Shown here: positions 1 through 48,204 of the stretch, in pieces
Layout of the letters: each line of letters opens with the position of its first letter
Numbering within the stretch: the stretch's first letter is position 1
Source of the DNA: an uncultured virus (IMG/VR IMGVR_UViG_3300029319_000023)
Taxonomy: Duplodnaviria; Heunggongvirae; Uroviricota; Caudoviricetes
Direction: 5' to 3' (one strand)
Virus record (IMG/VR): IMGVR_UViG_3300029319_000023
Length of the DNA: 64,000 bases
Notes under the pieces: generated by a model
Database searches by the model: none
The model's input: only the letters and a program-made list of their open reading frames with translations
Told to the model about the DNA's origin: nothing
Position numbers and translations under genes: made by a program

Positions 1-1
1 C

Positions 2-1276
2 TTTTACATTTATAAGGGTGGTATGGCAGCTAATGATGGTTCAATTCTAGGATCTGCTGACGAGAAGATTGGTGGTAGAGGTATGCCATTTTATGATAAT
101 GAAATAGGTTCATTAAAAGAAGCAATTGGTGATACTGATGCTGATAATATTATCAGAGTTGGTATCTTCACTGATACTTCTGGTTCTGTTGGTGTTGGAT
201 CTACTGCAAGATACAAGATTGGTGATTATGTACAGGTCAACAATGAGATTATGAGAGTTTCCAGAAATGATCTTTCTGGTGTTAATAATGATGGTCTTAC
301 TGTTATTAGAGGTTACTTTGGTACAGAGAAGAAATCTCAACCTATTGATTCCAGAGTCAAGAAGATTAGGGCAATTCCTGTAGAACTTCGTAGAAACTCA
401 ATTCTAAGAGCATCAGGTCACACGTTTGAATATCTTGGTTATGGTCCAGGTAACTACTCTACTGGTCTACCTGCTGTTCAGAACATCACACTGACACCTA
501 TGGAAACTTTCCTTGCACAAGCACAGGAATTATCTGGTGGTGTTATTGTATACACTGGTATGAACAACGATGGTGACTTCTTTATTGGTAACAAGTCTGT
601 TTCTTCTGCAACTGGTAGAGAGACAAGTTATGATACTCCAATTGCATCTGTTACAGGTGAAGAGGGAACTGCTGTTATAGGTGACTTTGATGAAGTTACT
701 ATCTCCCAGAGACTTAAGGTTGAGGGTGGTGCGTCTAAGACGATCTTATCTCAGTTCGATGGTCCTGTAACATTCCAGAATGAGATAAAAATTAACGATG
801 ATGTATTGATTGATGGTGATAAATTTATTATTGATGCTAAGACACAATTAACTGGAGATTTCAATGTCACTGGTGATATAACTGCAACTGGTATCGGTTC
901 CTTTGGTGGAAATGGTAGTTTCGGTGGTGATGTAATTATTCAAGGTGCACTAACAGTTGGTTCACTTAACACTAACCAAAAAGTAGATGGTGATACTATT
1001 GAACTTGGTACAGTCGCATTTGTTAATACTACTTCTGGAACTGTTGCACTTACTGTTCCAGATCCAGGAACTGCTGCTAAGTCATTTAAAGTTATTGATG
1101 TTGCTGGTAATGCATCTGTCAATAATATTACACTTACATTCCAGACAACTGCACCTAATCCCACAAGAAATGTGATGGGATACAGTGAAACTTCATTCAT
1201 TATTAACCAAGATCATGCAGCGATTGGATTTGTATTCAATACCAACGATAATAATTGGTATCCTACCGAGTTCTAA
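2..1276 (+). CDS. C-terminal part of a large tail fibre / virion structural protein (5' end lies before the window)
   Basis: Frame is open from base 2, upstream of the ATG at 23. Gly/Thr/Val-rich with beta-helix-like G-x-(V/L) runs. Motifs ILRASGHTFEYLGYGPGNYSTGLP and YTGMNNDGDFFIGN are typical of cyanophage fibre proteins. Confidence 0.7.
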   Translation, partial: FYIYKGGMAANDGSILGSADEKIGGRGMPFYDNEIGSLKEAIGDTDADNIIRVGIFTDTSGSVGVGSTARYKIGDYVQVNNEIMRVSRNDLSGVNNDGLTVIRGYFGTEKKSQPIDSRVKKIRAIPVELRRNSILRASGHTFEYLGYGPGNYSTGLPAVQNITLTPMETFLAQAQELSGGVIVYTGMNNDGDFFIGNKSVSSATGRETSYDTPIASVTGEEGTAVIGDFDEVTISQRLKVEGGASKTILSQFDGPVTFQNEIKINDDVLIDGDKFIIDAKTQLTGDFNVTGDITATGIGSFGGNGSFGGDVIIQGALTVGSLNTNQKVDGDTIELGTVAFVNTTSGTVALTVPDPGTAAKSFKVIDVAGNASVNNITLTFQTTAPNPTRNVMGYSETSFIINQDHAAIGFVFNTNDNNWYPTEF

Positions 1277-1281
1277 TCGCA

Positions 1282-4089: not shown

Positions 4090-4157
4090 TACCCCTGACA
4101 TTACTTGATGTCCCGAAAAAAGTGTGGTTAAATAATACTAATCACACTCATCAGTTT

Positions 4158-32800: not shown

Positions 32801-35800
32801 CTGTTATAGTTCCTTTAACAAGTATTGGTGGAACTGATCATAACTTTGGTTTAATTAATCCAAAAATAGAAATTCCTAGCAGATCTACTGCCGTATTTGA
32901 CTTACAAAACTATGAGTTAAATGGATATGATTTCAAAATTTATTATGACCAAGGATTTAATAGTGAATTTGTAGGAACTGGTCAAAGTACATTTGCTGAA
33001 GTTGGTGATGTTCTTGATGCAGAAGACCGTGTAATTAGTATTGGTAATACTTATGCTAGATTAGATGTTAATAATAATATCTTCTGTCCTAAGATTCTTT
33101 ATTATAATATTACTAAGGATGGAAAACCATTAATACCAGATAGTGATGTAAAAGAAAATAACACTATTAAGTATGTTAATAGTGCATATACTGGTAATTT
33201 TGCAATCACTGGTATCGGTAGTTCTGCAGTTGGAGTTGGTACTACCACATTCAGTTTTGCAATTGCAAAAACTCCAGAGCAAGTTTCTTATGCTGCAACT
33301 GAAGGTAGAAGGTTCTATTCTACAGCTGCCATTGGTCCAGAAGGTCCAATTGATAAAATTAATCTACTATCCAATGGAGAATTCTATACAAAACTACCAA
33401 GATTCTTGGGTGTTGAATCTGTAAAAGGTGATAACTCTACTATTAAACCAAAATCAACTAAAATTGGTCAAATTAATTCAATTCAGTTAGTAAATGAAGG
33501 ATTTAACTATTCTTCTGATAGTACTTTAAGACCAATTGTTGATGTTCCTACTGTTACTACTATTAGAGACTTTAATACTGTTGGTAACATTAGTATTTTG
33601 TCTAATGGTAAAAACTATATTTCTGCTCCTAAGTTAGAACTTGTCGATAGATTTGTAGGTACAAAAGTTGATGGTGCTAATATTGTTGCAAGAATTAATG
33701 AAAACTCAGGTTCTATTGTAGATACAGAAATTGCAGCGAATCCTGTAGGTCTACAAAATAGAGAATATAGGTTATATTCAGTTAATAATACAAATGGTAT
33801 TGTTATCACAAAATCAGAAGCTAACCCAACTAGAAGTGGTATTGTAACATTTACAATTTCTACTCCTGTTCTTGGGTTTAGTGCTCCACCATTTAAAGTT
33901 AATGATGAAGTTTGGATCGAAGGTTTTGAAAAAGATGCTGGTGCAGATGGTTACAACTCAGCGAATCATCAATACAATTTCTTAAAAGTTACTAATGTTG
34001 TAACAACTAACCCATTCTCCTTTACAGTTGATTATTCTGATTATACATTTAATGTTGGTTTAGGTGTTAGTGATACTCAAAACTTCTCTCGTGTTATTCC
34101 AAAAGATGAATTACCTACATTCAGGGTTGATTTAAAACAAGCTTCATTTGATAAAAATGAAAAATTAATTGTAAACAGTGAAGAGAGTGATTTACAAGTA
34201 ATTTCTTTTGATGCAACTGCTGAAAATATTAAGTTTGTTGGTACTTCTCCTATTGTTCCTGATGATATTATCATTGGAGCAAAGAGTGGTTCTCAAGCAA
34301 AAGTTGTAGAAATCTTAAGATTTGATGGTGTTTACAGCGTAGAAGCTGAGACAGATAAGACTATTGAAGGAACATCTGATTCTGGAAAATTAAATTCCAG
34401 TGGTCAAGTTATTCAAGATAACAATTATTATCAGAATCTTTCATATACACTTAAAACTGAAGTTTCTTATGAAGAGTGTATTGATGCGGTAAACAACAGT
34501 GTTCACCCAACAGGTCTTAAAAACTTTGTTGATAATCAGTTAGTAACTGTTGGTAAAAATGCAGGTATTCAAACTTCTACCACTGCTACTGATGCTACAG
34601 TAGATCTTGTTGAAGAAGTAAGAGTTGATGATCAATATTACTTTGATATAGGTAGAGATGTTAATATTGCAACTAGAAGTGAGGTAGAACTCAGTAATGA
34701 AATTGAATTAGAAAATGCAAAATTATCTGACTATTTTGAATCTATTACAAACAGAGTTCTAAACATTGACGATATTTCTAGTCAGTTTAGTAATATTAGT
34801 AATCCAAACACTTTGGATCTATTTGAAAATATTTACAGATATCCATTTAACTTTATCTCAAATAGATTCCTTGTTCAAATCACTAGTGAAGACCGTAGAG
34901 ATTTCCAAGTTTCTGAAATTACTATTCTTCAAGATGGAACTAATACTTACTATTCAGAACCAACCTTTAAGAAATTACATAGTACACCACAAGAGATCGG
35001 AACTCTTGAAGGTTCTGTAGATGTAGATAACTCACAGGTTCGTTTAAGATTTTATCCTGCTGATCCATTTGATAAGAACTATGATATTAAGGTTTTAAAC
35101 CAGTTCTATAATACTGAACCAACACTTACTGGTATCGGAACAACTGCATTTGGTTTTGCTGTTCTAATGGGTTCTGATGCTGAAATTGGACCTAACACAT
35201 CCAAATCTTTTGTTTCTGTTGCTGCAACAAACTTTGATTATCTACATTCTCAAGTTGAAGTAGAAACTGTGTCTGCTGGTCAAAAAGAGACCATGTTTGT
35301 TGAACTAAAAGCAATTCATGATGGAAATGATAGTTATATGTCTGAATATAATATTATTCTTTCTGATGGTTCTTTTGGTGGTACTAACGCAGGTGCATTT
35401 GGTACATTTGGAAGTACTTATGATCCTAGTGGTAATAACTTTAGTATTGAATTCTACAATGCTAGACCTGGTGAGTTTGTAAACTTAAAAGCAAGAACAT
35501 TAGGTTTCGGTAATACTGTTGGAACTACTAATAGAGACTATAGATTCTTAGCAACAGGAATGATTCCTGATAATGAAAGATCTGCTCAGTATTATACTGA
35601 GTATCAGAGTGTTGGTGTTGGATCTACTGCAAACTTTGCTGGTATTAAGAGTGATATTCAGTCCGTAAACCAGTGTACAATGGTTGTTGGATATGGAAGG
35701 ACATTCTCTGCCTTCCAGTACATGTTCTTGAATGACCAACTTGGTGATTCTCTATACTTCTCTGAATATCCCGTACTATCGGTCGGTAATACGACGGGTC

Positions 35801-38800
35801 TGGGAACGGTATTTGCCAAATATGATGGTGAAAAGGCAGTTCTTGTCTTTACACCTGAGGCAGGTATAACTGATAAAATGTCTATGAGGACATTTAATGA
35901 AGTCCTTTACTTAGAACTTGAAAGAAATACTGTAAATCCACTAGAATATGGAGCAGTTGTTGAAGAAACTTTCAATACTACTTACACTGGTTTGAATTTT
36001 AGAAATATCTTTGAATTCCCAATGTTGTGGAATGGATATCCAATTTTCTCTAAAACATTTAACCCTGCTAATACTTCTGCACTTAATCTTGCTACTGGTA
36101 AATTTAGGATTAAAAATCACTTCTTTGCAACTGGTCAAGAATTAAAATATATTCCTGGTGGAACATTTGTTGGTGTTGTCACAGCACCAATGACTCTTGC
36201 AAACGGAGATCCTCTACCATCTCCAGTTTATGCAATTAAAGATAATGAAGATGAGTTTAGAATTGGTCTTACTACAGCAGCTGCCATAGCAGGTATTGGA
36301 ACTACTTTAGGATCTGTTGGTGCAGGTAATCTTCATGAATTTGATACAACTGGTAAATTATCCAGATCTCTTATTGCGATTGACGGTCTTGTTCAGAAAC
36401 CACTTACTTGGGCACCAATTACTAGAACTCTAGAGAATAATACAACTCTTTCTGGGGGTGGAGTTCTTGGTCTTGGTAAAACTTCCACATTTATGGCAAT
36501 TTCAGGTATTTCATCTGTTATTCTTGGTGATATATTTGAAATTAATGATGAATTTGTACTTGTTGAAGCTGTTGGTGTAGGTACTACAAATACTGAAATT
36601 GATACTGCTGGTATTGGTACATTTAACTTATGTAAGATTCAACGTGGTTCAGTAGGAACAGCAGCATCATTCCATCCTAATGGTTCAATAATTCAAAAAT
36701 ACACTGGTTCTTATAGCTTCGCTAGAAATAATATCTTCTTCACTGGTGCTCCTAATGGTGGTAAATCTTCCGATGAAGCATCCACAACTGGTATTCCAGA
36801 AGCAGGATCTAGTTTCAATGGAAGAGTTTATTTGAGGAAAAATTATGATTCTAATAAGATCTTTGATGATATTTCTGGTCAGTTTACTGGTGTTGCGAAA
36901 ACATTTGCTCTTCAGTCTGAAGGTAAAAATATAACTGGTATTGGTAGTGAAGGTGGTTTTGGTATCTTCTTTGTGAACAATATGTTCCAAAAACCACAAA
37001 CTCCAAATAACTTTAATGCAAACCTATTCATTAGAGAACAAGGTGGTGCTACTGATCTAACTTTCACTGGTATTCTTAATGAAAGTGGAGATCCTATTGT
37101 TTCTGCAACAGATATTAACCAAAATGGTTTACCTAGAGGTGGTGTTGTTGTTACTTTAGGTTCTAGTGAAGGAAGAGGATTTGCAAATCTAGGTAATCCT
37201 TCTATTGGTGCTTCTATTAACCATGCAGGTGAAGTTTATAAGGTTCTGACTGCACCTACAACTCAAGGAATGAGTAGCATTACCAATTATGTCTACGATC
37301 ATACCATAGGACTTTCTACAGTTACCACTTCTACTGCTCATGGATTAGAAGCAGGTGATAGTATTGATTTTGTAGGTATTGGATTTACTTGTGTACCAAC
37401 TAAATCTGGAATTACTACTGGTGTCTTCCCATACACTAGAGGTCTTAAGAAGACTGTGGTTGACTTCCTCTATGATAATAAAACTGGAATGGCAACAGTA
37501 ACCACTCTAGAAAGATTTGGTATCTTAGAAGAAGGTGAGGAAGTATTCTTCAATGGTATTGGTTTCACATGTATTGGTCAAAAATATGCTCAAATCAGTC
37601 AGAAAGCTGGAATTACAACCACTCTCTTCCCTTGCAGAGCAGGTATTGCTAAGACTATTTCTGCCTTTAATTATGATAATACATCTGGTCTTGGTACTAT
37701 TACTTTGGCAACTCCTCACAGATATGAGGAAGGAGACAGAATTTATATTGAAGATCTCAACTTAAAATGTGGATATGGCGTTAATATTACTGATGCTCTA
37801 TATGATGCACCAACAGGTCTTACAACAATAACTACAGCATCTGCTCATAATTTCTCCAAAGGAGATAAGGTTAGATTGCAGGGTCTTGAATTCAGTTGTG
37901 CTGGATATGGAATAACATTTGCTATTTCTGCCTTTGAATATAATAATTCTACAGGTATTACTACGATTACAACTCCTAGTCCTCATGGAGCAAAACCTGG
38001 AGAACAGATAAAATTAACAGGTCTTGGATTTACATGTCCAAAAGTTAATGTTGGAACACCTATTGGATTTACTTATGAACCTTCAACTGGTCTTTCTACA
38101 GTCACATTTGCTTCTAATCATGGATTAACAAATGGTGATAAAATCTCCATTGGTGCAAGCAGTATCGTATTTACATGTACTTTAGATGGTGGTGCTACAA
38201 CTCATCCATATCCTCGTGCTACAGACTTTGCATATAATAAGTACCTACCAATTTCAGGTGTAACTACAAATTCATTCCAAGTTAATGTTGGAACTGGTGG
38301 TACAGGTACATTCCCACATACTTTTGTTAGTGCAACTACAAATGCGATTAAAACTCTTAACTATCTTGGCGTAACAACTTCAATATTCCCAGATGGTACA
38401 CAAGGAAGTCAATTCAGAGTTACTAAAGTTCTTTCTCCAACCAAGATTCTAACAAATGTTGGTATAACTTCTATTCCTCATGTTTACGATGCTGGTGGTG
38501 AAATACAGGTTGGTGTTACATCTCACATCTATCCTACTGGTAAATATGGATTTGAATTCATTGTTTCTAGCACACCAACCAAAAATAAGTTCAGAGTTAA
38601 TGTTGGACCTTCTACAATTGCTCACACTTATGTAAGTGGTGGTAATGCACTTCTTGGATTAAGTACAACCATATATCCATCAGCAGCATCAGGTATTGGT
38701 CATAGTATAACAGACTTTATCTACGATAATACTACAGGTCTTTCTACTGTTACTGTTGCAAGAAATTCTCTACCATTTGGATTAGGTGATAGAATTAACT

Positions 38801-41800
38801 TTGCTGGTTTAGGATTTACATGTCCTAGTGGTTTTGCTGGTCTAACATCAACTATTTTCCCACAATCATTAGGAAGAAAATATAATATTGGTACAGTTTA
38901 TTATGATAATTCTACTGGTCTTGCTACTGTAACCACAACTGCTGCTCATGATTTCAAAGTAACAGATAGTTTAGATTTACAAAATCTCCTCTTTAATTGT
39001 TCTTCAGCATATGCTGGCGTAACTACTCACAGATTCCCAGATCCTGCTACAGAACCTAATAGATCTTTCAGAGTTCTAAGAATCGTTGATCCAAATACAA
39101 TCTGGGTTGATGTTGGTGTTTCTACAATTGTTCACACATACAACCTTGGCAGACATACATGGGTAGGTGGTACAGCAAGTGCTGCGGTTCAATCTGGTGG
39201 TAATTACGTACATACATTCTTATCTGCTGTAACAAATGGAGTTCAGAGTGATGTTGGTAACTTACCAAACCCAATCACAAACGTAGCATATACTCCTAAC
39301 ACAGGTAATATGGTAATTACCTCTGCTAATCATTTACTAACAACTTCTAATACACTTACCATCGCTGATAACGCATTGTCCTTCACATGTACAATGGACG
39401 GAAATACAGCAACGAAGACTTATCCAAGATCTACTGACCCTGTATCAGGACAAATTATTAGTATCACAGGAACAACTACTAATACTATTACAGTTAACGT
39501 TGGTGCATCACCTATTGTAAATCATGATGTTACTGATGCGACTTACGATAGTGATACTGGAGTTTTAGTCTTAACTATCGGAGCACATAGTTTGACTGCA
39601 GGAACCAGTGTTAAGATAGCAAACGGAGCATTGAGTTTTACATGTGAGGATGATGGTAATGTATCAACTAAGACTTATCCAAGAGCTAGTGATCCTTATT
39701 ATGATACTGCAATTAACATTGATTCAGTTGGTGCAGATACTATTACATTAAATGTTGGAATTAATACTCGTGGTACAGTTTCTGCAATTAAGAAAACTGG
39801 TCCTTATGAAGTAACCAGACTTCTTCCACCTAGACCATATGACGTAACTAATGCCATTTATGATCCAGTTGTAGGTATCATGACTGTTACTATTGGTAAT
39901 GGACACGGTATTTCTGTTGGTGAAACTGTTGATATTGGAACTAATGCATTAACATTTACCTGTGATATGGATTCCACAGGTTCTCAGAAGACATATCCAA
40001 GAAACTTAATTAAATCCTTTACACCAACTAATGCCATCTATGATCCTGTTGTAGGTGTAACAACTATAACTGTTGCTGATCATGGTATGGATGATGGATC
40101 ATGGGTTAAATTAGCAGATAATGCATTATCATTCAGATGTGGTTATGGTGTAACTGATCATACATTTGTATCTGCAACAACTGGTGCAGTTAATGTTCAG
40201 AGTGGTGCAGTATCTGGAACTGAATTAACACCTGCTAACGCAACTTATAATGCAACAACAGGTGCTCTTACATTAGTATTCCTATCTTCTCATGGAATGT
40301 CAACTAGTGATACAGTTACTCTTGATTATAATTCATTGACATTTACTTGTGCTGCAGATTATCATGCAACAACACACACATATCCTCGTGTTACTGATCC
40401 TATTGCAGGAATAACCACTGCTGTAACTGTTACATCAGGAACTGAGTTTATAATTTATGTCGGAGATGCTCTTGGAAGTAAGAGTACAAAATCATATCCA
40501 CGTTCTAGTGATCCTATTAGTGGACAATGGGTACAAGTTTCTAATACTACAGCAAACACTTTTGAAATTCAGGCGTTATCTGACAATTCTGTTCCATCTA
40601 CAAATGTAGATTCACATACGTTTATATCTGCTGTAACTGATGGTATTACACATAAGGTAGATAGATCATTCGAGCAACCAGTTGAAGTTGTTGGCGTTGG
40701 AAATACTACTATCGATCTTCAAGTTGGTAGATCACCACAACAACTATTCAATGTAACTGGCGCTGCGTATGAACCTAGTACTGGTGTATTAGAACTTACT
40801 ATTGGTGCTCATAATTTTGTAATCGGTCAACATATAAAATTAGCAACTGATTCATTATCATTCAGATGTGCTTTAGATGGTTACTCTGTAACTAAGACAT
40901 ATCCTCGTGCTAGTGGTACTGGTATTAATGCTGGTACTCCAGATTATGCATATGAGAAATCTTTAGAAATTAGTGCAGTAAGTTCAACAACTATTACTAT
41001 CAATGTCAACGGTGCTGTAGGTCTCTCTTCTATCAGTGACTTATCTGCTCACACATTTATTAGTGCAACTGCTGGTGCTGTTATTGCAGGTGGTAATTAC
41101 GCACATACATTTGTTGGTGTTGCTACTGGTGCTATCACAAAAGGTGGTCCTAGATTCAACTGTAACGTTGGTATTACCTCTTACAAACACACATATACAC
41201 CATCAATTGGTGTTGGTGAAGTATCCAAACTCAATTTTGGTGGCGTAGATGATACTTATATCATAACTGGTATTGTCAATAAGAAGGCATTTAATATTGA
41301 TTGTGGTATTTCAACTTATCAACACTTCTACAATGGTGGTGGAATTACTAAGAAGAAATTAAGGACTGATGCCTTTATTGTTGATACTGTTTATGATGAT
41401 AGAACATTTAGAACTAATGTAGGGGTTTCTTCATATCGTCACGTATATGATCCAAAACCAAGTAAAGAACCTGGTGGTATTAGTAGTATTACTGGAATGA
41501 CATACAACACTACTACTGGTATTGCAACATTTACTGTTCCTAGTCATGGAATTAAGGGTGGTGAACTAATCAGTATTTCTGGTCTTGCTTTAACTTGTCC
41601 TGGTGGAACAGGTATTACGACTCATATTTTCCCAGATCCAAATGGTTTGAGTAGAGATATTAGCACCGCTACTTATAATAATGCAACAGGTATAATGACA
41701 GTGACCACTAACGTTGGTCATGGTGTTACATTTGTTGGTCAATTTGTAAAACTTGAAAATCTTGGTTTCGCTTGTACTGGCGGAGCTGGTGGAAGTCATA

Positions 41801-44800
41801 CTTTTGTAAGTGCAGCAACTAGCGCAGTCCAGACTGGTGGTAACTATGCACACACATTTGTTCCTCAATATGGTTTGACACCTGATACTGCTTTATATGA
41901 TCCAGTTACAGGTATAATGACTGTTACTAATCAGCAGTTGACTGTATCAGATGCGATTTATGATCCTGTTAGTGGTGAAATGACATTAACTGTTGGAGTT
42001 CATAGATTGACAAATTATGATAGTGTACGTCTTGATACAGAATCAATATCCTTTAGTTGTGTATTTGAAGGTAAGTTAGAGACTAAGGCATATCCAAGAG
42101 CATCAGGTGATTATGTCAATGGCAAGGATCTTCCAATCATACGTTATACATCTGACACAATTACAGTTAATGTTAATGGCGGAAAAGGTGCTATCAGTCA
42201 TGCTGTTCCTCATACATTCGTAAGTGCTACTTCAAAGGGTGTTAAAGTTAATCATGGATTAAGAAATGGTGATTACATTAAGTTTGATGATTATGCAATT
42301 ACATTTACATGTAATAAAGATGGTAATGCAACAACTCACCCATATCCAAGACCTACTGATCCTCTTAGTGGTACGTTTACACAGGTTACTGTTGTTGATG
42401 AAAACAGATTTAGTGTAGGAGTATTAACAGTTACACCTTCTACAGATGTTTCACCTCATACATTTGTAACTGCACAACCTGGTGGTATTAAGAAAGCAGT
42501 AATCGAGAGTGGTGGTGACCACCCACATACATTTGTTGGTACAGCAACTAGTGCAATCCAATCAGGTGGTGATTACACCCATACATGGGCAGGTGGTACT
42601 GCTTCTAGTGCAATCCAGTCAGGTGGTAATTATCTTCATACATTCGTATCTGCTGGAATAAACAGTGTTACCTCAGATGTTGGTAATTTACCTAATCCAG
42701 TAACAAATGCAGTATACACTCCATCAACAGGTGATATGGTTATCACTTCTGCTGCTCATTTATTAACTACATCAAATACAATTTCTATTACTAATGATGG
42801 GTTATCCTTTAATTGTGCAATGGATGGCAATTCAGCAACGAAGACTTATCCTAGATCAACCGATCCTATTTCTGGAATTGCAACTGCTATTACAGGAACA
42901 ACCACAGATACCTTTACAATCAACGTTGGTGCATCACCTATCGTAAATCATGATGTCACCAATGCAACTTATAATGCAGCGACAGGTGTGATGGAACTAA
43001 CCATCGGTGCTCATACCTTGACAACAGGAACAAGTGTTAAGATTGCTAATAATGGATTATCCTTTACCTGTACAATGGATGGTAATACATCGACTAAGAC
43101 ATATCCTAGATCAACCGATCCATTCTATGATACTGCTGTTGCAATCGCTGCTACAACCAGTAATACAATCAGTTTAAATGTTGGTATATCAACTATCGTA
43201 AATCATGATGTTAGTGCTGCGACTTATGATGCTGCTACAGGTGTAATGGTACTAAACATCGGTGCTCATACCTTAAGAACAGGAACAAGTGTTAAGATTG
43301 CTAATGGTTCACTACCATTTACTTGCACAATGGATGGTAATACATCAACGAAGAATTATCCAAGATCCACTGATCCATTCTATGATACTGCTGTTGGTAT
43401 TGCTTCAACAACTAGTGATACAATCACACTTAATGTAGGTAAATCTCCTATTCTCCCATTTGATGTTAGTTCTGCAACTTACGATCCTGCTACAGGATTA
43501 ATGGTAGCAAACATTGGTGCTCATACCTTAAAAACTGGAACTGCTGTTAAAATTAATGAAAATTCATTACTATTCACATGTTCACAGGATGATAATGCAA
43601 CAGTTCATGCATATCCTCGTTCAACTACTGGTTCTCTTACCGCAACAACTGGTACAGTTTATGATCCTGTTGTAGGTATCATGACTGTTACTACTCCTGC
43701 TGCTCATGGAATGAAAAATGGTGATCTAGTTAAACTTGAAGATGGTGCGGTTTCATTCTCATGTCAATATGGTGTAGGTTCAGTACATACTTGGGCTGGT
43801 GGAACAGTAACTAATGCAATTACAATTACTGTTGGTCCTGTGCAGACACAACATGATGTAACTAATGCCACATATGATCCTGCAACTGGTGATATGGTAA
43901 TTACCATTGGTACTCATAGTTTCACAACTGATGACTTAGTAGAAATTGGTGCTGATAAGTTTGCATTTACTTGTACTGCTGACGGTAACGTCAAGACTAA
44001 GTACTATCCTCGTTCAACCGATCCTGCATATAATACGCCTCTTAATATTACTGCTGTAGACGGAGCAGGTGGAACAATCACAGTTAATGTTGGTGCTACT
44101 AGTGGAACTGTGGCAACTGCATATCCTCGTTCTACTGATTTCATCAGTAATAGATGGGTTGAGATTTCTAATGTAACCACAAAAACATTTGATGTCCAAG
44201 TATTAGATGTAATCCCTTCTACAAATACTGATGCTCATACATTTGTCTCTGGTAAGACTAATGGCATCACATTCAAACGTGCAAAAGACCCATACTATAA
44301 TACTTCTGTTGCTATTGCTGCTACAACTAGTGATACAATCAGTTTAAATGTTGGTGTATCAACTACCGTAAATTATAATGTTTCTGATGCTAGTTACGAT
44401 CCAAATTCAGGTAAAATGGTACTTACCATTGGTTCTCATGACTTAGATGTAGGAACAAGTATCAAGATAGCAGATAACTCACTCACATTTACATGTGATA
44501 AAGATAATAATGCGACTCAGCATAGTTATCCTAGAACTCTTATAGAGACCAAAACTGTAACTGATGCTACTTACGATCCTACTACTGGTATGATGGTACT
44601 TACTGTTCCTAACCACGGATTTGAGAATGGTAGACAAATTAAGTTAGCAGATAATTCATTATCATTTACATGTACTTTAGATGGTAACACTTCAGTTAAA
44701 ACTTATCCAAGAGCAACTGATCCTGTAAGTGGTAAGTGGATAAAGGTAGAAAACGTCACTACAAATACTTTTGAAGTACAAACATTAGCAACTGTACCTT

Positions 44801-47800
44801 CTACAAACGTTTCTGTACATACATTTGTAAGTGCAACTGATGAAGGTTTATCACATAAGAGAGATCCATTCTACGATAATAATATTAATATTGAGGCAAG
44901 AACTCCAAATACAATTACAGTTAATATTGGAGCAACTCCAGATCTTCAGCAGAGCACTGGATTAACAGGACCAACATATTTCACTGATGTTCCTATCACT
45001 GGATTTAACTACACTAACACTACTGGTGTTACAACTATAACCGCAGTTGGTCATGGACTAACAACAGGTGAAAATGTAAAACTATCTGGTATTGCTTTGA
45101 CATGTACTTCTGGTATGAAGACATATCCAGATGGTGGAACAGGATTCTTCTTCGGAGTAACTGATGTTATTGATGCTAATACCTTCGTAACAAACACAGG
45201 TATCTCAACTATAGTACACACATATGTCAGTGGTGGTAATGTAAGAACTGGTGTTACAAGTGACAGGTTCCCTAATCCTCAAGGTGCATTTATTAAGATT
45301 GCTAATTTTGAATATAATAATATGACTGGTTTGGCAACAGTAACAACCAATGGATTCAATCAACTTGGAACTGGGCAGTTAATTAACTTTGAAAATATCC
45401 ATATGCTTTGCCCAATTGGTAGTGGTACTACACATGTATTCCCACAAGATACTGGAACCGCTGTTAATATCAGTAACTTCCAATATGATAATCAATCAGG
45501 TATTGCGACTGTTACTACCGCAACCAACCATAATTTTGTCCGATTTAAGAAGGTTAGATTGCAGGGTATGACCGTATCATGTGCATATGGTTCTAAGACT
45601 TATCCAGATAAGCAAACTGACTTTGAATTGACGACTATTGTTAACTCAACAACATTTGTAACTAATGTAGGAGTATCAACTCTTGCTCATACATATGTTT
45701 CTGGTGGTACTGCTGCAGAAGTTAAATTCGCTGGTCCTTACACAGTTAAGGAAAGAATTGACAGAAATACATTCACTGTTAATGTTGGTGTTTCTACTTA
45801 CGTCCATACTTACGATCACTCTGGTAGAGTATCTCCTGTAAGATATACTGGACCTTATGAAGTACTTGCTATTGCTAATAGTAAGGAATATACCATTAAT
45901 GTTGGAAGATCCCCAATTGCTCATACTTACACTGGTGGTGGTACATCCAAACCACAACAATATACTGGTCCTTATAAAGTAATCAGTGCAGATGACGCAA
46001 ATACAATAAGAGTAAGAGTTGGTATTTCAACTTATCAGCACTTCTACGGTAGTGGTGGTATGGTTACCCAATTACGTTCTGGTATTGCTGAGAAGAAATT
46101 AAATCCAGGTCCATTTAGAGTTAAGGAAGTATATTCTGCTACTGAATTTACTGCTGATGTTGGTATCTGTACATTTAAACACTTCTATCATTCTGGTGGT
46201 AAAGTTGGTAAGGTTAATCAGTTCTTCCCTGGTAGTGGATTCTATGGAAATAGTGTTCCAGTAACAGTAGTTCCTGAAAATAATGTTGGAACTGGTTTAA
46301 CAATTACTACTACAGTTGGTTTTGGTGGAAGTCTCGTTCCTTCTCTAGATTATGTTGGAACTGGATTTACTATTGCTCCAAGGTTAGAAACTCCTGGACC
46401 ATCTTATGATGATCTACCAGTTAGAGGTCTCTTTAGATTAGGTATTGGTGAGACAACCCAGACTGGTATTGGATTATCTGTAACTCTAAATGTTGGTGGT
46501 ATTAGTACTAGTGGTGTTGCATCAGAGTCAAGTGGAGTTAAGAACTTTACAATCGGAAACAGAGGATATGGTTTCCAAGTTAATGATAAGGTTAGTCCTG
46601 TTGGTTTGGTAACTGCTGCAAAAGTCCTTGCTGGATCTAAGACAGTTGGTTATACAACTGAAACTGAACCATTTGAACTTCAAGTTGTTGATACATTCTC
46701 CGATACTTTCTATGGATGGCAATTCGGTCAACTTGATTATATTGATGATATTACCTCACTACAAGATGGTGTAACAAAGAGATTCCCACTATTCCAAAAT
46801 GAGCAGTTAGTCAGTTTTGAGAAACAAGATGGAACACCTATTAGTTTCCCATCACTTCTTATCATCTTTATCAATGGTGTTCTTCAAATACCAGAGAAAG
46901 ATTACAGCTTTGAAGGTGGTACTGCATTTGAATTTACAAGTGCTCCAGCAGAGGCTGACCAAGTTACAATTTACTTCTATAGAGGTAGTAATGATGATGT
47001 TAATACTGTTAACGTAGTTGAATCAATCAAAATTGGTGATGAATTAATCTTAATTAAACCAGTTGGTGTTTCTACTGTTCCAGATCAAGAACCAAGAGTT
47101 GTTAATGACATTGTTGCATCCGATATTCTTGCAACTAACTTATACTCTAGACAGGGTATTGATGGTAACTTCAAGAGACCTGTTGTTTGGAGAAAACAAA
47201 AAGTTGATAGAACTGTTGATGGACGTATTATTCCTAAGACTCGTGAAGCACTAGAACCACAAATCTATCCAACAGCAAGAATTATTGGTTCTGCATCTTC
47301 AACTCAAGATTACCTCTTCCTTGATAATACTAGTTTGTTTAACTATGAAAATGTTAGTCCATCTACTAATTTTGATGGCATCATTACTCCAGGAACAGAT
47401 CCAGTTGTAGGTATTCTAAGCGTTGGAGTTGGAACTACAGGTGCAAGTGCTGGTACGATTTCCACAATCACTGTTCTTAATGGTGGTTCTGGATATACTG
47501 GAATCGTAACAATTTCTATATCAAATCCACCTGATATTACTGTTGGTTTCGGAACAACTGCACTAGCAACTGCAATTATTTCTGGCGGTTCAATCATTGG
47601 TGCAAATATTACCAATGCTGGTAGTGGATATGGAACTAGTGCATTTGCGTTAGTACCAAATCCAGTTGTGGAGATTGAAAGTATCACAATAACACCAACT
47701 GTAAATGGTTATGATGGTGATATTATTGGAATTACAACTTCTACTGGAATCGGTACTGATCTCTGTTTGAAGTTTACTTTAACTCTTCCATCTTCCCCAT

Positions 47801-48204
47801 CAGATACCCTTAGAGATGGAATGAGAATCTTTATTAACGATACTAATGTTGGTACAGGTGTAACTTCTATCGATACTCACAATTCCCAAGTAATTGGTAT
47901 TGGTACAACTGCTTGTAACAACATCTATAAAGTTCACCAAGTTCAGTATGATGCAGGTAACGGAATCATAACCACTTTCTGCAATATTGATTCAAATTCA
48001 AATACTTCTGGACTCAGTACTGTTGGATTTGCATACACTAATGTTGGTACCTACAGTTGGGGAATTGTTACTGGATTTAGTAGAGGAAGTAATCCAATCG
48101 CACTTAATGTCGATGGAAATACGTTCTCTGTTGGTCTAGGATCTTACCCACTTTTCCAGAGAAGAGGGTTCGGTTTAAGGGGTACTGGAGGAATCACAAA
48201 ATAA
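26842..48204 (+). CDS. gp7: Giant baseplate wedge initiator (gp7-like), 7120 aa, with an extensive repeat region
   Basis: Between gp6 and gp8; N-terminal QLPRFV...FLRQYY and FYKTKGT.ESFRILFNVLYG; YYQNLSY...VHPTG; YHYH-like SPIIGWAYDGNPIFGP segment; late-promoter-like ATAAATA at 26741. Confidence 0.85.
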   Translation: MINKRVKIKDVIESQLPRFVLEDNPKFADFLRQYYISQEFQGGSIDLAENLDQYIKLDNLIDNVINPDIILERECTATSSEIVLSSSEGLPDEYGLIKINDEILTYTELDGNTIKGCIRGFSGISKYRDENNPEELVFESTDASAHTSGVLVFDTTGYAAADYYYQSATITKMFGIIRVRARGTSGRSTPTTFRLGITNIDNDFYQLSNANRDVNTNDLTNLGIDSLGLNQTIVIDEGDTIEFIVNAQGFPVWIQNIGNGYDTTAVLTTGVTNGGASTTTAVQNLSVEFLKEYYIKLKELYAPGFEDRTLNSGINVGNFLKNVNSFYKTKGTRESFRILFNVLYGKKVQVVDLEDFVVKSSTSDYLRRAIVVVSAISGNPLLLTGQTLYQDADPTNPDVQPASGPISEVEIFTRQGEEFYKIPLFVGYNEQSLVSGSFFVPGFTKNTLLASANTRVINVDSTVGFSRSGSFYIDSLGITVTYTDKNLTQFLGCSGLTSDLPVGSEVRSTVIAYGYEEGDSTRKVEMRITGVLGEFEAQGSNYYLDVGNEIYIKSIGENIAPPADPLTLPTYKQRIFNSWIYNIATRYEVSEITGSTVSISDKFDKSNLRTGDSVDILARGTNTITTTAVVTVIDNNTVQLSNTTGITTDRNWDIRRVISRATSSNNLIEFGNQTIISNIQNAYVTKDKVNESMYVATQGLPSFSFSVDRVFVDFNGQDVGIGQIDQLVSFQTNLPFVTGDEIVYEALSGSTVLEGLESGKRYFIWVNPAANNQLKLANARSFIEVSKFIDLKQGTGTHRLTLASQYGKQIQPQKILRQFPLKPSVSSGLAQTTTYGPTGMLINGIEILNYKSNDYLYYGPLQSVELVSGGTDYDVINPPKIEVSNPGAGGTVAVINPVLSGSLKSLYLENRESYDIDQVFGINIEGGNGEGASGEITLSQDYTEANFNAKNILANGGVDIPGNTLTFVGAHNFKTGQKIVYNSNGNQPLGVALTLGSDDITQYDPESTLQNGVTYFANVINTTTIKLHETEDDANAGVATVGITTFNTLGIHKFRSFDFKNKIQNISVVTEGSDYTKRTYEIKTTGISTGTNCFIVKNHGFQNNEDVIYQATNSIPELTTDTNYRIIRISADEFRLALSETDVTRGRYIFLSDVGSGIHTVKYPDITANIVASIGGTTVSIPCEPDVRGEIIGAYLSEPGSDYGSKVLNFEKPPLITVSSGSGAQFQPLISNGIITQVQIIGAGSNYTSAPDLTVVGPTGSGAQLKAKLNASGKVATVEVISGGIGYDAEDTAIVVRSVGQSGIIESTVRPLTVNLHEKYSTDDFLNAETQYPIQYASLAYSQDLQTDFGDTLAQRSPIIGWAYDGNPIFGPFATRDPKQNTGITTYVRSGYQLASHLVPNRPDPGEYPAGFFVEDYKFMGTGDLDVHNGRWFVSDDFPDGIYGYVATLEIDPGTGLPRASFPYYIGDTYIAPKASQSISQDDDINALDLSRNTYPYRLKSNSASYDFVIEADELVGQEGVIDSVLTGGVEQLEIVEGGDLYKVGDVLEFDEEGTGGNGVSAQVSFVKGKSVTDLQSTNVQFDEVTFQKTADSEITGIIQPNHDFNNGEVIEIFNTNTDVKGLQGFHVVGVASERAILLDPVKAGAVGVITDLIVSRIPQNVSGGSSIKFSDGEVAKVLNVIESKNLLRIERTGIASFSASGTISYLQDRFTIDSDAPQFVSEFFPKKFFNPKQTVGVGTTVGNYETLNYTENNIAQTRVVEHKSIFLNKHPFLDGQKALFVKKSGQLSLGVATAIGVGTTATLVTDSLPRSGVEQEVYIVYKSINTIGIKTEKNGAELFFTSDGSNDDGYFVQGIGTAVRGSVLQPTTTVTTTQAHGLQVGDTINFNVIANQEVGIGTSSRVRLELNSEGLVIVDSQGISSAGVNTSTNRISIQGNNFKTGDRIYYEPKCPEPIGGLSRGRYYIYRDSPDNFRLCETYEDAVADVPVIVPLTSIGGTDHNFGLINPKIEIPSRSTAVFDLQNYELNGYDFKIYYDQGFNSEFVGTGQSTFAEVGDVLDAEDRVISIGNTYARLDVNNNIFCPKILYYNITKDGKPLIPDSDVKENNTIKYVNSAYTGNFAITGIGSSAVGVGTTTFSFAIAKTPEQVSYAATEGRRFYSTAAIGPEGPIDKINLLSNGEFYTKLPRFLGVESVKGDNSTIKPKSTKIGQINSIQLVNEGFNYSSDSTLRPIVDVPTVTTIRDFNTVGNISILSNGKNYISAPKLELVDRFVGTKVDGANIVARINENSGSIVDTEIAANPVGLQNREYRLYSVNNTNGIVITKSEANPTRSGIVTFTISTPVLGFSAPPFKVNDEVWIEGFEKDAGADGYNSANHQYNFLKVTNVVTTNPFSFTVDYSDYTFNVGLGVSDTQNFSRVIPKDELPTFRVDLKQASFDKNEKLIVNSEESDLQVISFDATAENIKFVGTSPIVPDDIIIGAKSGSQAKVVEILRFDGVYSVEAETDKTIEGTSDSGKLNSSGQVIQDNNYYQNLSYTLKTEVSYEECIDAVNNSVHPTGLKNFVDNQLVTVGKNAGIQTSTTATDATVDLVEEVRVDDQYYFDIGRDVNIATRSEVELSNEIELENAKLSDYFESITNRVLNIDDISSQFSNISNPNTLDLFENIYRYPFNFISNRFLVQITSEDRRDFQVSEITILQDGTNTYYSEPTFKKLHSTPQEIGTLEGSVDVDNSQVRLRFYPADPFDKNYDIKVLNQFYNTEPTLTGIGTTAFGFAVLMGSDAEIGPNTSKSFVSVAATNFDYLHSQVEVETVSAGQKETMFVELKAIHDGNDSYMSEYNIILSDGSFGGTNAGAFGTFGSTYDPSGNNFSIEFYNARPGEFVNLKARTLGFGNTVGTTNRDYRFLATGMIPDNERSAQYYTEYQSVGVGSTANFAGIKSDIQSVNQCTMVVGYGRTFSAFQYMFLNDQLGDSLYFSEYPVLSVGNTTGLGTVFAKYDGEKAVLVFTPEAGITDKMSMRTFNEVLYLELERNTVNPLEYGAVVEETFNTTYTGLNFRNIFEFPMLWNGYPIFSKTFNPANTSALNLATGKFRIKNHFFATGQELKYIPGGTFVGVVTAPMTLANGDPLPSPVYAIKDNEDEFRIGLTTAAAIAGIGTTLGSVGAGNLHEFDTTGKLSRSLIAIDGLVQKPLTWAPITRTLENNTTLSGGGVLGLGKTSTFMAISGISSVILGDIFEINDEFVLVEAVGVGTTNTEIDTAGIGTFNLCKIQRGSVGTAASFHPNGSIIQKYTGSYSFARNNIFFTGAPNGGKSSDEASTTGIPEAGSSFNGRVYLRKNYDSNKIFDDISGQFTGVAKTFALQSEGKNITGIGSEGGFGIFFVNNMFQKPQTPNNFNANLFIREQGGATDLTFTGILNESGDPIVSATDINQNGLPRGGVVVTLGSSEGRGFANLGNPSIGASINHAGEVYKVLTAPTTQGMSSITNYVYDHTIGLSTVTTSTAHGLEAGDSIDFVGIGFTCVPTKSGITTGVFPYTRGLKKTVVDFLYDNKTGMATVTTLERFGILEEGEEVFFNGIGFTCIGQKYAQISQKAGITTTLFPCRAGIAKTISAFNYDNTSGLGTITLATPHRYEEGDRIYIEDLNLKCGYGVNITDALYDAPTGLTTITTASAHNFSKGDKVRLQGLEFSCAGYGITFAISAFEYNNSTGITTITTPSPHGAKPGEQIKLTGLGFTCPKVNVGTPIGFTYEPSTGLSTVTFASNHGLTNGDKISIGASSIVFTCTLDGGATTHPYPRATDFAYNKYLPISGVTTNSFQVNVGTGGTGTFPHTFVSATTNAIKTLNYLGVTTSIFPDGTQGSQFRVTKVLSPTKILTNVGITSIPHVYDAGGEIQVGVTSHIYPTGKYGFEFIVSSTPTKNKFRVNVGPSTIAHTYVSGGNALLGLSTTIYPSAASGIGHSITDFIYDNTTGLSTVTVARNSLPFGLGDRINFAGLGFTCPSGFAGLTSTIFPQSLGRKYNIGTVYYDNSTGLATVTTTAAHDFKVTDSLDLQNLLFNCSSAYAGVTTHRFPDPATEPNRSFRVLRIVDPNTIWVDVGVSTIVHTYNLGRHTWVGGTASAAVQSGGNYVHTFLSAVTNGVQSDVGNLPNPITNVAYTPNTGNMVITSANHLLTTSNTLTIADNALSFTCTMDGNTATKTYPRSTDPVSGQIISITGTTTNTITVNVGASPIVNHDVTDATYDSDTGVLVLTIGAHSLTAGTSVKIANGALSFTCEDDGNVSTKTYPRASDPYYDTAINIDSVGADTITLNVGINTRGTVSAIKKTGPYEVTRLLPPRPYDVTNAIYDPVVGIMTVTIGNGHGISVGETVDIGTNALTFTCDMDSTGSQKTYPRNLIKSFTPTNAIYDPVVGVTTITVADHGMDDGSWVKLADNALSFRCGYGVTDHTFVSATTGAVNVQSGAVSGTELTPANATYNATTGALTLVFLSSHGMSTSDTVTLDYNSLTFTCAADYHATTHTYPRVTDPIAGITTAVTVTSGTEFIIYVGDALGSKSTKSYPRSSDPISGQWVQVSNTTANTFEIQALSDNSVPSTNVDSHTFISAVTDGITHKVDRSFEQPVEVVGVGNTTIDLQVGRSPQQLFNVTGAAYEPSTGVLELTIGAHNFVIGQHIKLATDSLSFRCALDGYSVTKTYPRASGTGINAGTPDYAYEKSLEISAVSSTTITINVNGAVGLSSISDLSAHTFISATAGAVIAGGNYAHTFVGVATGAITKGGPRFNCNVGITSYKHTYTPSIGVGEVSKLNFGGVDDTYIITGIVNKKAFNIDCGISTYQHFYNGGGITKKKLRTDAFIVDTVYDDRTFRTNVGVSSYRHVYDPKPSKEPGGISSITGMTYNTTTGIATFTVPSHGIKGGELISISGLALTCPGGTGITTHIFPDPNGLSRDISTATYNNATGIMTVTTNVGHGVTFVGQFVKLENLGFACTGGAGGSHTFVSAATSAVQTGGNYAHTFVPQYGLTPDTALYDPVTGIMTVTNQQLTVSDAIYDPVSGEMTLTVGVHRLTNYDSVRLDTESISFSCVFEGKLETKAYPRASGDYVNGKDLPIIRYTSDTITVNVNGGKGAISHAVPHTFVSATSKGVKVNHGLRNGDYIKFDDYAITFTCNKDGNATTHPYPRPTDPLSGTFTQVTVVDENRFSVGVLTVTPSTDVSPHTFVTAQPGGIKKAVIESGGDHPHTFVGTATSAIQSGGDYTHTWAGGTASSAIQSGGNYLHTFVSAGINSVTSDVGNLPNPVTNAVYTPSTGDMVITSAAHLLTTSNTISITNDGLSFNCAMDGNSATKTYPRSTDPISGIATAITGTTTDTFTINVGASPIVNHDVTNATYNAATGVMELTIGAHTLTTGTSVKIANNGLSFTCTMDGNTSTKTYPRSTDPFYDTAVAIAATTSNTISLNVGISTIVNHDVSAATYDAATGVMVLNIGAHTLRTGTSVKIANGSLPFTCTMDGNTSTKNYPRSTDPFYDTAVGIASTTSDTITLNVGKSPILPFDVSSATYDPATGLMVANIGAHTLKTGTAVKINENSLLFTCSQDDNATVHAYPRSTTGSLTATTGTVYDPVVGIMTVTTPAAHGMKNGDLVKLEDGAVSFSCQYGVGSVHTWAGGTVTNAITITVGPVQTQHDVTNATYDPATGDMVITIGTHSFTTDDLVEIGADKFAFTCTADGNVKTKYYPRSTDPAYNTPLNITAVDGAGGTITVNVGATSGTVATAYPRSTDFISNRWVEISNVTTKTFDVQVLDVIPSTNTDAHTFVSGKTNGITFKRAKDPYYNTSVAIAATTSDTISLNVGVSTTVNYNVSDASYDPNSGKMVLTIGSHDLDVGTSIKIADNSLTFTCDKDNNATQHSYPRTLIETKTVTDATYDPTTGMMVLTVPNHGFENGRQIKLADNSLSFTCTLDGNTSVKTYPRATDPVSGKWIKVENVTTNTFEVQTLATVPSTNVSVHTFVSATDEGLSHKRDPFYDNNINIEARTPNTITVNIGATPDLQQSTGLTGPTYFTDVPITGFNYTNTTGVTTITAVGHGLTTGENVKLSGIALTCTSGMKTYPDGGTGFFFGVTDVIDANTFVTNTGISTIVHTYVSGGNVRTGVTSDRFPNPQGAFIKIANFEYNNMTGLATVTTNGFNQLGTGQLINFENIHMLCPIGSGTTHVFPQDTGTAVNISNFQYDNQSGIATVTTATNHNFVRFKKVRLQGMTVSCAYGSKTYPDKQTDFELTTIVNSTTFVTNVGVSTLAHTYVSGGTAAEVKFAGPYTVKERIDRNTFTVNVGVSTYVHTYDHSGRVSPVRYTGPYEVLAIANSKEYTINVGRSPIAHTYTGGGTSKPQQYTGPYKVISADDANTIRVRVGISTYQHFYGSGGMVTQLRSGIAEKKLNPGPFRVKEVYSATEFTADVGICTFKHFYHSGGKVGKVNQFFPGSGFYGNSVPVTVVPENNVGTGLTITTTVGFGGSLVPSLDYVGTGFTIAPRLETPGPSYDDLPVRGLFRLGIGETTQTGIGLSVTLNVGGISTSGVASESSGVKNFTIGNRGYGFQVNDKVSPVGLVTAAKVLAGSKTVGYTTETEPFELQVVDTFSDTFYGWQFGQLDYIDDITSLQDGVTKRFPLFQNEQLVSFEKQDGTPISFPSLLIIFINGVLQIPEKDYSFEGGTAFEFTSAPAEADQVTIYFYRGSNDDVNTVNVVESIKIGDELILIKPVGVSTVPDQEPRVVNDIVASDILATNLYSRQGIDGNFKRPVVWRKQKVDRTVDGRIIPKTREALEPQIYPTARIIGSASSTQDYLFLDNTSLFNYENVSPSTNFDGIITPGTDPVVGILSVGVGTTGASAGTISTITVLNGGSGYTGIVTISISNPPDITVGFGTTALATAIISGGSIIGANITNAGSGYGTSAFALVPNPVVEIESITITPTVNGYDGDIIGITTSTGIGTDLCLKFTLTLPSSPSDTLRDGMRIFINDTNVGTGVTSIDTHNSQVIGIGTTACNNIYKVHQVQYDAGNGIITTFCNIDSNSNTSGLSTVGFAYTNVGTYSWGIVTGFSRGSNPIALNVDGNTFSVGLGSYPLFQRRGFGLRGTGGITK
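37275..46215 (+). repeat. Intragenic region of ~85-100-aa beta-rich repeat modules in gp7
   Basis: Recurrent YDxxTGxxTxT...H...G...FTC, KTYPRxTDP, TITxNVG and HTFVSA motifs; 255-nt tandem period at 42940/43195. Confidence 0.9.

Follow-up and report, generated by a model that had tools for sequence, protein, structure and literature searches.

We present here the analysis of a giant gp7-type baseplate wedge gene carried on a 64,000-nucleotide (nt) stretch of DNA from an uncultured member of the Caudoviricetes (IMG/VR record IMGVR_UViG_3300029319_000023), the whole of which is referred to as the window. The open reading frame (ORF) at 26842..48204 on the plus strand encodes 7120 amino acids (aa), with the frame open throughout, and aa 3478-6460 of its product are very probably the outcome of recursive self-insertion of a closed beta-barrel of about 90 aa, of the FCCH / phage endosialidase type, amounting to 29 barrels. 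It is envisaged that the chain would leave a barrel unfinished at a loop, build one or several further barrels and then return to add the missing strands, and that four loops could take such inserts: the one behind the initial hairpin of the opening half, those following the F-T-C strand and the T..YPR linker, and one within the closing hairpin. Since the two ends of the barrel lie together, a whole barrel or sub-tree would fit into the loop of another barrel without breaking it. As the root barrel would close at aa 6458, the 2,980-residue array would start and end at one point of the gp7 body, which would leave the baseplate core undisturbed and allow barrels to be gained or lost as whole cassettes. 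An earlier note on this DNA had proposed domains inside domains, and the proposal is supported by the balanced order of the halves, a split opener, a one-sided linker, the predicted models and shorter homologues. A domain split by its own copy is met with in the split opener, in the 15 hosts standing in balanced order and in predicted structure, and the hosts themselves serve as inserts, over seven levels by bracket depth and three levels within one AlphaFold2 model.

The 29 copies of the unit are built, in order, of an opening half (A), a linker (L, T..YPR), a closing half (B) and a last strand (H). The opening half, of about 40 aa, comprises the hairpin YDxxTGxxTVT, HGLxxGDxVxL and then F-T-C; the linker reads DGNxxTKTYPR or GITTxIFPDG; the closing half is a hairpin with the end TFxVNVG; and the last strand reads S...HxYxSGG, with a variant, H', reading HTFVSAxxxAIQSGGNY. 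A hidden Markov model (HMM) of 77 positions, iterated from one full unit, matches 39 places in aa 3480-6316, many of which cover the first or the second half alone. Openers were identified by one A-HMM and closers by the union of three closer HMMs, yielding 28 full opener matches plus one split opener (i-E-values of the matches 1e-5 to 1e-24) and a total of 29 closers. In the split opener, a complete unit (aa 5035-5129) separates HMM positions 4-16 (aa 5017-5029) from positions 19-40 (aa 5137-5158).

The succession of halves that had been described in the earlier note at both ends of the array is confirmed by translation and by the HMMs and, on the opener i-E-values and the order statistics, greatly exceeds what chance would give. 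The six YDxxTG openers at nt 37294, 37471, 37672, 37801, 37939 and 38074 precede any closer, the opener HMM finding six full ones in aa 3480-3780; three closers with (V/T)NVG...H.Y motifs come next (nt 38281, 38452 and 38596; HMMs at aa 3797, 3857 and 3905), and five terminal closers end the array (nt 45661, 45781, 45898, 46015 and 46156; HMMs at aa 6261, 6299, 6338, 6377 and 6424). The same note had also distinguished a second repeat type with stacked HT(F/W) strands. The strands are indeed present (aa 5206, 5229, 5247 and 5266; nt 42457-42640), but one unit HMM matches both types, and the supposed second type is therefore a subfamily of the same unit. The three units behind these strands (aa 5287-5541) end in ..IVNHD / ..ILPFD, not in H.Y..GG. 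Elsewhere in gp7, the non-repeat body holds two partial matches, both to the middle of the opener HMM, ..HNFKTGQKIV (aa 964-980, nt 29731-29781, plus strand, E 0.006) and ..AHGLQVGDTINF (aa 1870-1887, nt 32449-32502, plus strand, E 0.0006), the latter being excluded from the token string; they may represent a GD-box-like hairpin of other domains, or chance.

Written as a string of opener (A) and closer (b) tokens, the array reads AAAAAAbbbAAbAbAbAAAbbbAbbbbAA<Ab>bAbAbAbAAAbbbAAbbAbAAbbbbb, and the bracket check by half HMMs that the earlier note had called for returns 29 of each half, arranged as a balanced (Dyck) word, the running bracket count never becoming negative and reaching a maximum depth of seven. 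By this order 15 barrels are hosts (D) and 14 are continuous units (U), and the longest path runs through seven levels as D1 > D2 > D3 > D7 > D11 > D12 > U13. Runs of like halves, such as the six A and the five B-H, do resemble tandem arrays, and tandem duplication is the commonest route of repeat growth, so that the region could be conceived as beads on a string in which opening and closing halves are two independent small domains. We consider such an arrangement very unlikely, as it is contradicted by the 29 to 29 balance and bracket-word order, by the opener that is split by a whole unit, and by the shuffling, linker and structural results that follow.

Homologues were searched among proteins of 3916-12460 residues, where 552 of the 774 scored proteins were recovered at E <= 0.001, and the best 120 of the 552 were taken. 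The closest relative, P0002 (7019 aa), is 89% identical over the region searched, and all others among the best 120 stand at <=44%. Altogether 121 giant proteins were tokenised into 4177 tokens, with the qualification that these proteins are related and the counts are not independent trials. Bracket matching left 118 of the 4177 tokens unmatched, as against a mean of 760 (minimum 664) in 200 full shuffles and a mean of 440 in 200 shuffles that kept run lengths, where at least 370 stayed unmatched, which speaks against tandem runs of independent domains. An opener immediately after an opener occurs in 672 cases. The full grammar, including split openers, was parsed without violation in 44 of the 121 proteins; depth seven is attained in this gp7 and P0002 alone, the others ranging from 1 to 6, and the arrangements <<Ab>b>b, AAAbbb and a seven-fold AbAbAAbb super-repeat recur across different lineages.

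The linker, which was not used in tokenising or matching, furnishes a separate line of evidence. Two separated halves that belong to one domain are expected to share a single linker, placed behind the opener or ahead of the closer. It stands on exactly one side in 11 of the 14 nested pairs of this gp7; in our reading of the other three, D3 and D16 would have stand-alone linkers in between, and the linker of D23, AYPRSTD (E 0.022), missed the coverage rule. Across the 121 proteins, 427 nested pairs carry the linker on one side in 352 cases, on both sides in 8 and on neither in 67 (Fisher odds ratio 0.03, p 6e-29), and 1253 of the 1267 contiguous units possess a linker. When closers were permuted within each protein (1000 trials), the one-side count averaged 310 and never exceeded 332. 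Complementary placement of this kind is not what would be expected of beads on a string.

Structure prediction with AlphaFold2 was carried out for a two-level nest (aa 5847-6051; multiple sequence alignment of 24) and a three-level nest (aa 3649-3938; alignment of 23). In the two-level model (predicted local distance difference test, pLDDT, 85.1; predicted template modelling score, pTM, 0.74), a single barrel is built from A+L+B*+H' over residues 54-165, both the entering strand (55-58) and the leaving strand (157-160) lie inside the span matched as one barrel, and the outer closing strands are in blocks with pLDDT 86-96. When the three-level model was compared by VIA-align with one solved barrel of 85 residues, 83 residues aligned across model positions 40..247; in addition, 70-75 residues align across 1..290, and four of the 50 VIA rows listed span 86..193. 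An 85-residue barrel laid across a 208-residue span at 2.4 Å implies that about 125 model residues are skipped, which is the size of U6 plus linkers. The three classes of range match the predicted middle barrel (A5 with the distal L-B-H), outer barrel (A4 with L-B-H) and inner barrel (U6), suggesting indirectly that separated halves come together in one barrel at three levels, which is the principal structural argument for the nest. With A+L+B+H placed in one closed barrel by both models (root-mean-square deviation 2.2-2.6 over 81-83 residues to single solved barrels), the halves do not behave as independent domains, in line with the earlier note and at variance with beads on a string.

Structurally, the best counterparts are closed barrels of the FCCH, endosialidase and FAD-binding types, and the match to the E1 FCCH / endosialidase barrel covers the whole domain and stands above background. 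The sequence signals for this fold are weak: PF16190 (E1_FCCH) matches one of 14 units at E 0.0048 and PF12195 (End_beta_barrel) one of 14 at E 0.43, no unit being shown at the curated cut-off for either, and an Atlas cluster named E1_FCCH was recovered with a score of 0.90. Among predicted viral structures in BFVD, 36 match the two-level model at E <= 0.001, mostly cyanophage structural proteins and S-SSM7 gp7, and a Syn30 fragment attains a TM score of 0.79 normalised to the two-level model. Foldseek returned nothing from PDB for the two-level model at E <= 0.001, and a PDB sequence search with the unit profile gave chance-level matches only (7c5x, E 0.002, with no stretch significant alone; 8bke, E 2.3). 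The Pfam scan of the repeat region returned no family at E 0.01, and a link to the HxH repeat of tail fibres is thus left unsupported.

Several observations weigh against a recursive nest. Besides the kinship of the tokenised proteins, 118 tokens stay unmatched in them and a perfect parse is limited to 44. In a nearest-neighbour subtype test on 137 unique AAbb blocks, the outer opener predicted the type of the second closer in 59, the outer closers being often truncated; mirrored pairing beats parallel pairing in 135 of the 137 blocks, but this is carried by the inner adjacent pair. The three-level model reaches a pTM of only 0.46 (pLDDT 78.6), and its outermost level was aligned to near-identical sequences only. 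The split-barrel reading is arithmetic from the first and last aligned residues of predicted models, and hence indirect; the pairs D1, D2, D3, D7, D15 and D16, separated by more than about 200 residues, are candidate pairs read from the grammar; and the extra H' strands at aa 4755, 4986 and 5004, as well as the segment aa 4307-4334, were placed by eye.

Some of these points would be accommodated if strands were swapped or shared, with barrels completed by neighbours or by other gp7 copies to give an interdigitated lattice and not a tree: the low pTM of the three-level model, the failure of the subtype test to support specific outer partners and the position of the extra H' strands, apart from the bodies they would complete, are all compatible with it. 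Such a lattice is nevertheless improbable in our estimate, because the linker is one-sided in more bracket pairs than in any of the 1000 permutations, because the models, computed as monomers, already unite separated halves in one barrel, and because openers and closers balance chain by chain.

The recursive nest is further supported by comparison with relatives. The basal nest A5[U6]LBH is colinear in fragments of shorter gp7 proteins at 44-51% identity, in 20 of 23 alignment rows, down to the junction C-P-K-x-x-V-G-T-P. One shorter gp7 (L256) consists of the conserved N-flank, AAbb, a short unassigned stretch, one more unit (Ab) and the conserved C-flank. The comparison with shorter homologues thus agrees with the earlier note, for what they have between these conserved flanks is limited to the basal nest A[unit]LBH; one nest is accordingly part of the family's basal state, and 29 barrels occupy its slot here. 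The two-level nest (aa 5847-6051) is colinear in 23 fragments at 38-54% identity, among which a single near-identical one stands at 97%. An apparent difference of +110 aa in a 99% identical relative (L248) proved to be an artefact of joined matches, the sequences being colinear.

Truncated or degenerate elements do exist, such as the closer at aa 4772-4790, the H strands of U10, U13 and U24 and the segment aa 4307-4334, and they might invite the view that orphan halves are the debris of broken duplications, disordered linkers devoid of a structural role. This is hardly credible. The reading frame stays open for 7120 codons, the motifs of the orphan halves persist in relatives that are 94-100% identical, the basal nest keeps both of its halves at 44-51% identity in 20 fragments, and orphan halves are modelled at a block pLDDT of 65-89 in the three-level nest and not as disorder.

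With regard to distribution, tblastn located the repeat in 394 phage records, nearly all of Synechococcus or Prochlorococcus phages, in genes annotated as gp7, tail-fibre or 'structural protein'. On metagenome-derived IMG/VR contigs, fragments L001-L003, L246-L247 and L273-L274 are protein-identical (100%) to parts of this gp7, a gp7 lineage of 94-97% identity is found on other contigs, and a copy of the last closer with 72% identity is present on L173 and L174. Samples of varied kinds have also yielded numerous IMG/VR contigs (L177-L245) with complete type-I units (..FTCxxxHAGVTTTIFPDGTQG..VNVGxSTIxHTYxSGG), and the barrel may therefore not be confined to marine cyanomyoviruses. Precomputed annotations list PF00502 (phycobilisome protein) or LamG/laminin-G (PF13385, PF02210) in P0005, P0012, P0023, P0031 and other giant homologues; none of the three families was found in this gp7 by the Pfam scan.

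The identity of the gene was established from its two flanks and its neighbours. The family phrog_2885 (baseplate wedge subunit) covers the first 3465 residues (E 0, 2517.9 bits, profile 152-3329 of 4179) and also the last 650 residues (E 1.3e-125, profile 3527-4177), and the 2,980 residues between, at nt 37273-46215, are for this reason taken as an internal expansion of gp7; the conserved C-terminal part begins directly after the closer of D1. The order gp6 - gp7 - gp8 is present, with phrog_219 at 24947-26836 and phrog_438 at 48254-49807. Pfam Baseplate_wedge (PF23786) stays under its cut-off on this gp7 (20.3 vs 27 bits, E 0.00041, a single short stretch) and is annotated (precomputed) in several of the giant homologues. 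The window covers a structural module of a marine, T4-like cyanophage; the closest named phages, S-SSM6a and S-SSM7, match at 84%, limited to 199 bases. A YHYH domain (PF14240) lies in the conserved N-terminal gp7 body at aa 1274-1450 (nt 30661-31191, plus strand, E 2.4e-23) and is common to many of the giant homologues.

Within the array, the extra H' strands form a pattern of their own. At four sites their number equals that of the H-less units behind them: H' at aa 4105 and 4124 precede U9 and U10, that at 4440 precedes U13, those at 5229, 5247 and 5266 precede U19-U21, and that at 5649 precedes U24. P0002 has two H' and two units at the corresponding site, as against three and three here, and is shorter by 101 residues, about one strand plus one unit. 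Such counts are in keeping with barrels that receive their last strand ahead of the body and are nested in mirror order; they agree equally well with one contiguous H'+unit cassette having been gained or lost. Stacked strands ahead of strand-less bodies, as claimed before, are consequently supported in part. The H' strands at aa 4755, 4986 and 5004 are without a clear partner, of which 4986 and 5004 could possibly pair with the H-less hosts D22 and D25.

The tree may be read from the token order as follows, all parts lying on the plus strand and nt positions following those in aa. It would have one root, D1, containing D2 and D15. The opener and linker of D1 (A1 + L1, aa 3480-3538, 37279..37455; A-HMM E 3e-09, L core) would be answered by a B-H closer about 2,880 residues later (aa 6416-6458, 46087..46215; closer HMM, linker). 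D2 opens with A2 + L2 (aa 3539-3605, 37456..37656; opener HMM, L core) and would contain D3. The opener HMM then detects three openers that lack a linker, A3 (aa 3606-3643, 37657..37770), A4 (aa 3649-3686, 37786..37899; outer barrel of the AlphaFold2 model) and A5 (aa 3695-3732, 37924..38037; middle barrel of the model, orthologous to the basal gp7 nest), followed by the continuous unit U6 (aa 3741-3842, 38062..38367; unit and opener HMMs; inner barrel of the model, in rows ranging over 86..192). The L-B-H elements assigned as closing D5 (aa 3843-3889, 38368..38508) and D4 (aa 3890-3937, 38509..38652) are each supported by closer HMM, linker and model. D3 would be interrupted twice, by D4 > D5 > U6 and then by D7, and we assign to it the stand-alone linker at aa 3938-3953 (38653..38700; L core GLSTTIYPS).

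D7 opens with A7 + L (aa 3956-4015, 38707..38886; opener HMM, L core) and would likewise be interrupted twice. After the linker come U8 (aa 4016-4104, 38887..39153; unit and closer HMMs), two extra H' strands recognised by motif (aa 4105-4144, 39154..39273) and the continuous units U9 and U10, which have no H of their own (aa 4145-4310, 39274..39771; unit HMM). The second interruption, D11 > D12 > U13 and then U14, would fall inside the closing hairpin, which in our reading is split into a first strand, TGPYEVTRL (aa 4319-4330, 39796..39831; proposed from its likeness to YTGPYEVLAI closers), and FNCNVGITSYKHTY at aa 4772-4786, the second strand and H together occupying aa 4772-4790 (41155..41211; BI-HMM positions 13-27, E 1e-06). 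Enclosed by these strands are the opener and linker of D11 (A11 + L, aa 4335-4394, 39844..40023; opener HMM), the linker-less opener of D12 (A12, aa 4396-4433, 40027..40140; opener HMM), an extra H' (aa 4440-4464, 40159..40233; motif), U13 at the deepest level, seven (aa 4465-4545, 40234..40476; unit and closer HMMs), the L-B*-H' assigned to D12 (aa 4546-4603, 40477..40650; closer HMM, linker), the B assigned to D11 (aa 4608-4637, 40663..40752; HMM, linker) and U14 with one extra H' (aa 4638-4771, 40753..41154; unit and closer HMMs). The B-H elements that would close D3 (aa 4797-4836, 41230..41349; closer HMM) and D2 (aa 4837-4880, 41350..41481; closer HMM, linker) complete this branch.

The other branch, D15 (A15 + L, aa 4883-4939, 41488..41658; opener HMM, L core), would contain D16, whose opener A16 is without a linker (aa 4940-4978, 41659..41775; opener HMM). 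D16 would hold D17 carrying U18, then U19-U21, D22 > D23 > U24, D25 > U26 and U27, and after its stand-alone linker D28 > U29. Two extra H' strands with uncertain partner bodies (aa 4986-5015, 41797..41886; motif) precede the first hairpin of the D17 opener (aa 5016-5034, 41887..41943; A-HMM positions 4-16), inside which opener U18 is lodged (aa 5035-5135, 41944..42246; unit and opener HMMs), and the remainder of A17 with L-B*-H' follows (aa 5136-5222, 42247..42507; A-HMM positions 19-40, closer HMM). Three extra H' strands (aa 5229-5286, 42526..42699; motif; two in P0002) stand before U19, U20 and U21, continuous units with no H of their own (aa 5287-5541, 42700..43464; unit HMM; two in P0002). 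D22 opens with A22 + L (aa 5542-5602, 43465..43647; opener HMM, linker) and D23 with A23, again without a linker (aa 5603-5641, 43648..43764; opener HMM); an extra H' with a short strand (aa 5649-5672, 43786..43857; motif) leads to U24 (aa 5673-5755, 43858..44106; unit and opener HMMs), after which L-B*-H' would close D23 (aa 5756-5806, 44107..44259; closer HMMs and the AYPRSTD linker) and B-H would close D22 (aa 5807-5846, 44260..44379; HMM, linker).

D25 was covered by the two-level model, of which its opener and linker (A25 + L, aa 5847-5905, 44380..44556; opener HMM) form residues 1-58, U26 (aa 5906-6002, 44557..44847) corresponds to the single predicted barrel of residues 54-165, and the B assigned as its closer (aa 6003-6035, 44848..44946; HMM, linker) contributes the well-modelled strands 169-174 and 178-182. 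U27 (aa 6052-6136, 44995..45249; unit and closer HMMs) is followed by a stand-alone linker that we attribute to D16 (aa 6137-6150, 45250..45291; L core TGVTSDRFPNPQG), by the opener and linker of D28 (A28 + L, aa 6153-6209, 45298..45468; opener HMM, L core) and by U29 (aa 6210-6292, 45469..45717; unit and closer HMMs). B-H elements would then close D28 (aa 6293-6331, 45718..45834; closer HMM, linker), D16 (aa 6332-6370, 45835..45951; closer HMM) and D15 (aa 6371-6410, 45952..46071; closer HMM, linker), ahead of the closer of the root.

Beyond gp7, a second giant ORF of 2478 aa (49820-57256, plus strand) lies directly 3' of the gp8-like gene; phrog_358 (function unknown) matches its entire length at E 0, and phrog_877 and phrog_5986 match portions of it. 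The sole long minus-strand ORF (16356-17117, 253 aa), in a window that otherwise reads on the plus strand, lies at the only stretch where the GC skew is negative.

As the same barrel is found in phage endosialidases and tail fibres, and the repeat is common to fibre genes, we would suggest, by analogy and tentatively, that the tree serves as a branched, multivalent appendage on the rim of the baseplate wedge that binds the host surface. Held with similar reserve, the array could be the deepest and largest recursive nest in any protein and the first in a virus particle, possessing two bracket systems (split barrels, and circularly permuted barrels with the last strand ahead in mirror order), growing by cassettes in four fixed loops and amounting to an evolvable multivalent adhesin with one anchor point. 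Should the tree prove real, a virion protein would be able to gain thousands of residues with its machine undisturbed, since every insert begins and ends at one point, and recursive domain insertion would reach from Si3 of RNA polymerase into phage particles. With 552 giant homologues and 394 phage records holding the repeat, the family is large, and marine cyanophages are among the most abundant viruses of the sea; the nest offers a concrete reading of their unexplained giant gp7 genes, and differences in host range may be encoded in which barrels are gained or lost. Structure predictors and domain parsers mostly assume contiguous domains, and the nest gives them a test set of natural origin.

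In comparison with known systems, gp7 of T4 shares with this gene the flanking gp6 and gp8 genes and the PHROG baseplate-wedge family; it has about 1,000 residues and is without such a repeat region. The endosialidase barrel (phi92 4hiz, K1F 1v0e; PF12195) and the FCCH domain of E1 (PF16190) are single insertions into an unrelated host fold, and we know of no self-nesting in either. The very large gp7-fused ORFs of P-SSM2 (orf113) and P-SSM4 (orf080) belong to the same gene family, and their giant size has been noted before, where they were read as tail fibres fused N-terminally to the baseplate (PMC1079782); here, by contrast, the repeats are internal, with gp7 sequence on both sides and a predicted nest returning to its start. 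The G-D-x-V motif of the gp7 unit resembles the GD-box named for HABAS domains, a resemblance only, and HABAS domains are described as inserted into other HABAS domains and sometimes swapped (PMC11515920). Full-text searches, with subscription journals outside their reach, found no paper describing such a nest in cyanophages or phage particles, which agrees for phages with the claim of the earlier note that this nesting had not been described, though recursive self-insertion is known for Si3 of RNA polymerase.

Si3 of cyanobacterial RNA polymerase, which contains eight sandwich-barrel hybrid motifs (SBHMs), four of them built from distant segments (PMC10895346), is the closest parallel, and a survey of 2.7 million domains takes its six-level nest as the example of extreme complexity (PMC13114784). 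Both systems place a small beta domain in loops of its own paralogues (Si3 within RpoC2, beta'), so that several domains combine segments lying far apart in sequence. Among the 50 VIA rows listed for either model no RNA polymerase beta' chain appears, though the two may still be related. Si3 has been solved experimentally, whereas the gp7 nest is predicted, and the host here is a baseplate protein of the virion and not an enzyme. The putative nest of gp7 would comprise 29 domains against the 8-10 of Si3, and seven levels by sequence grammar against six.

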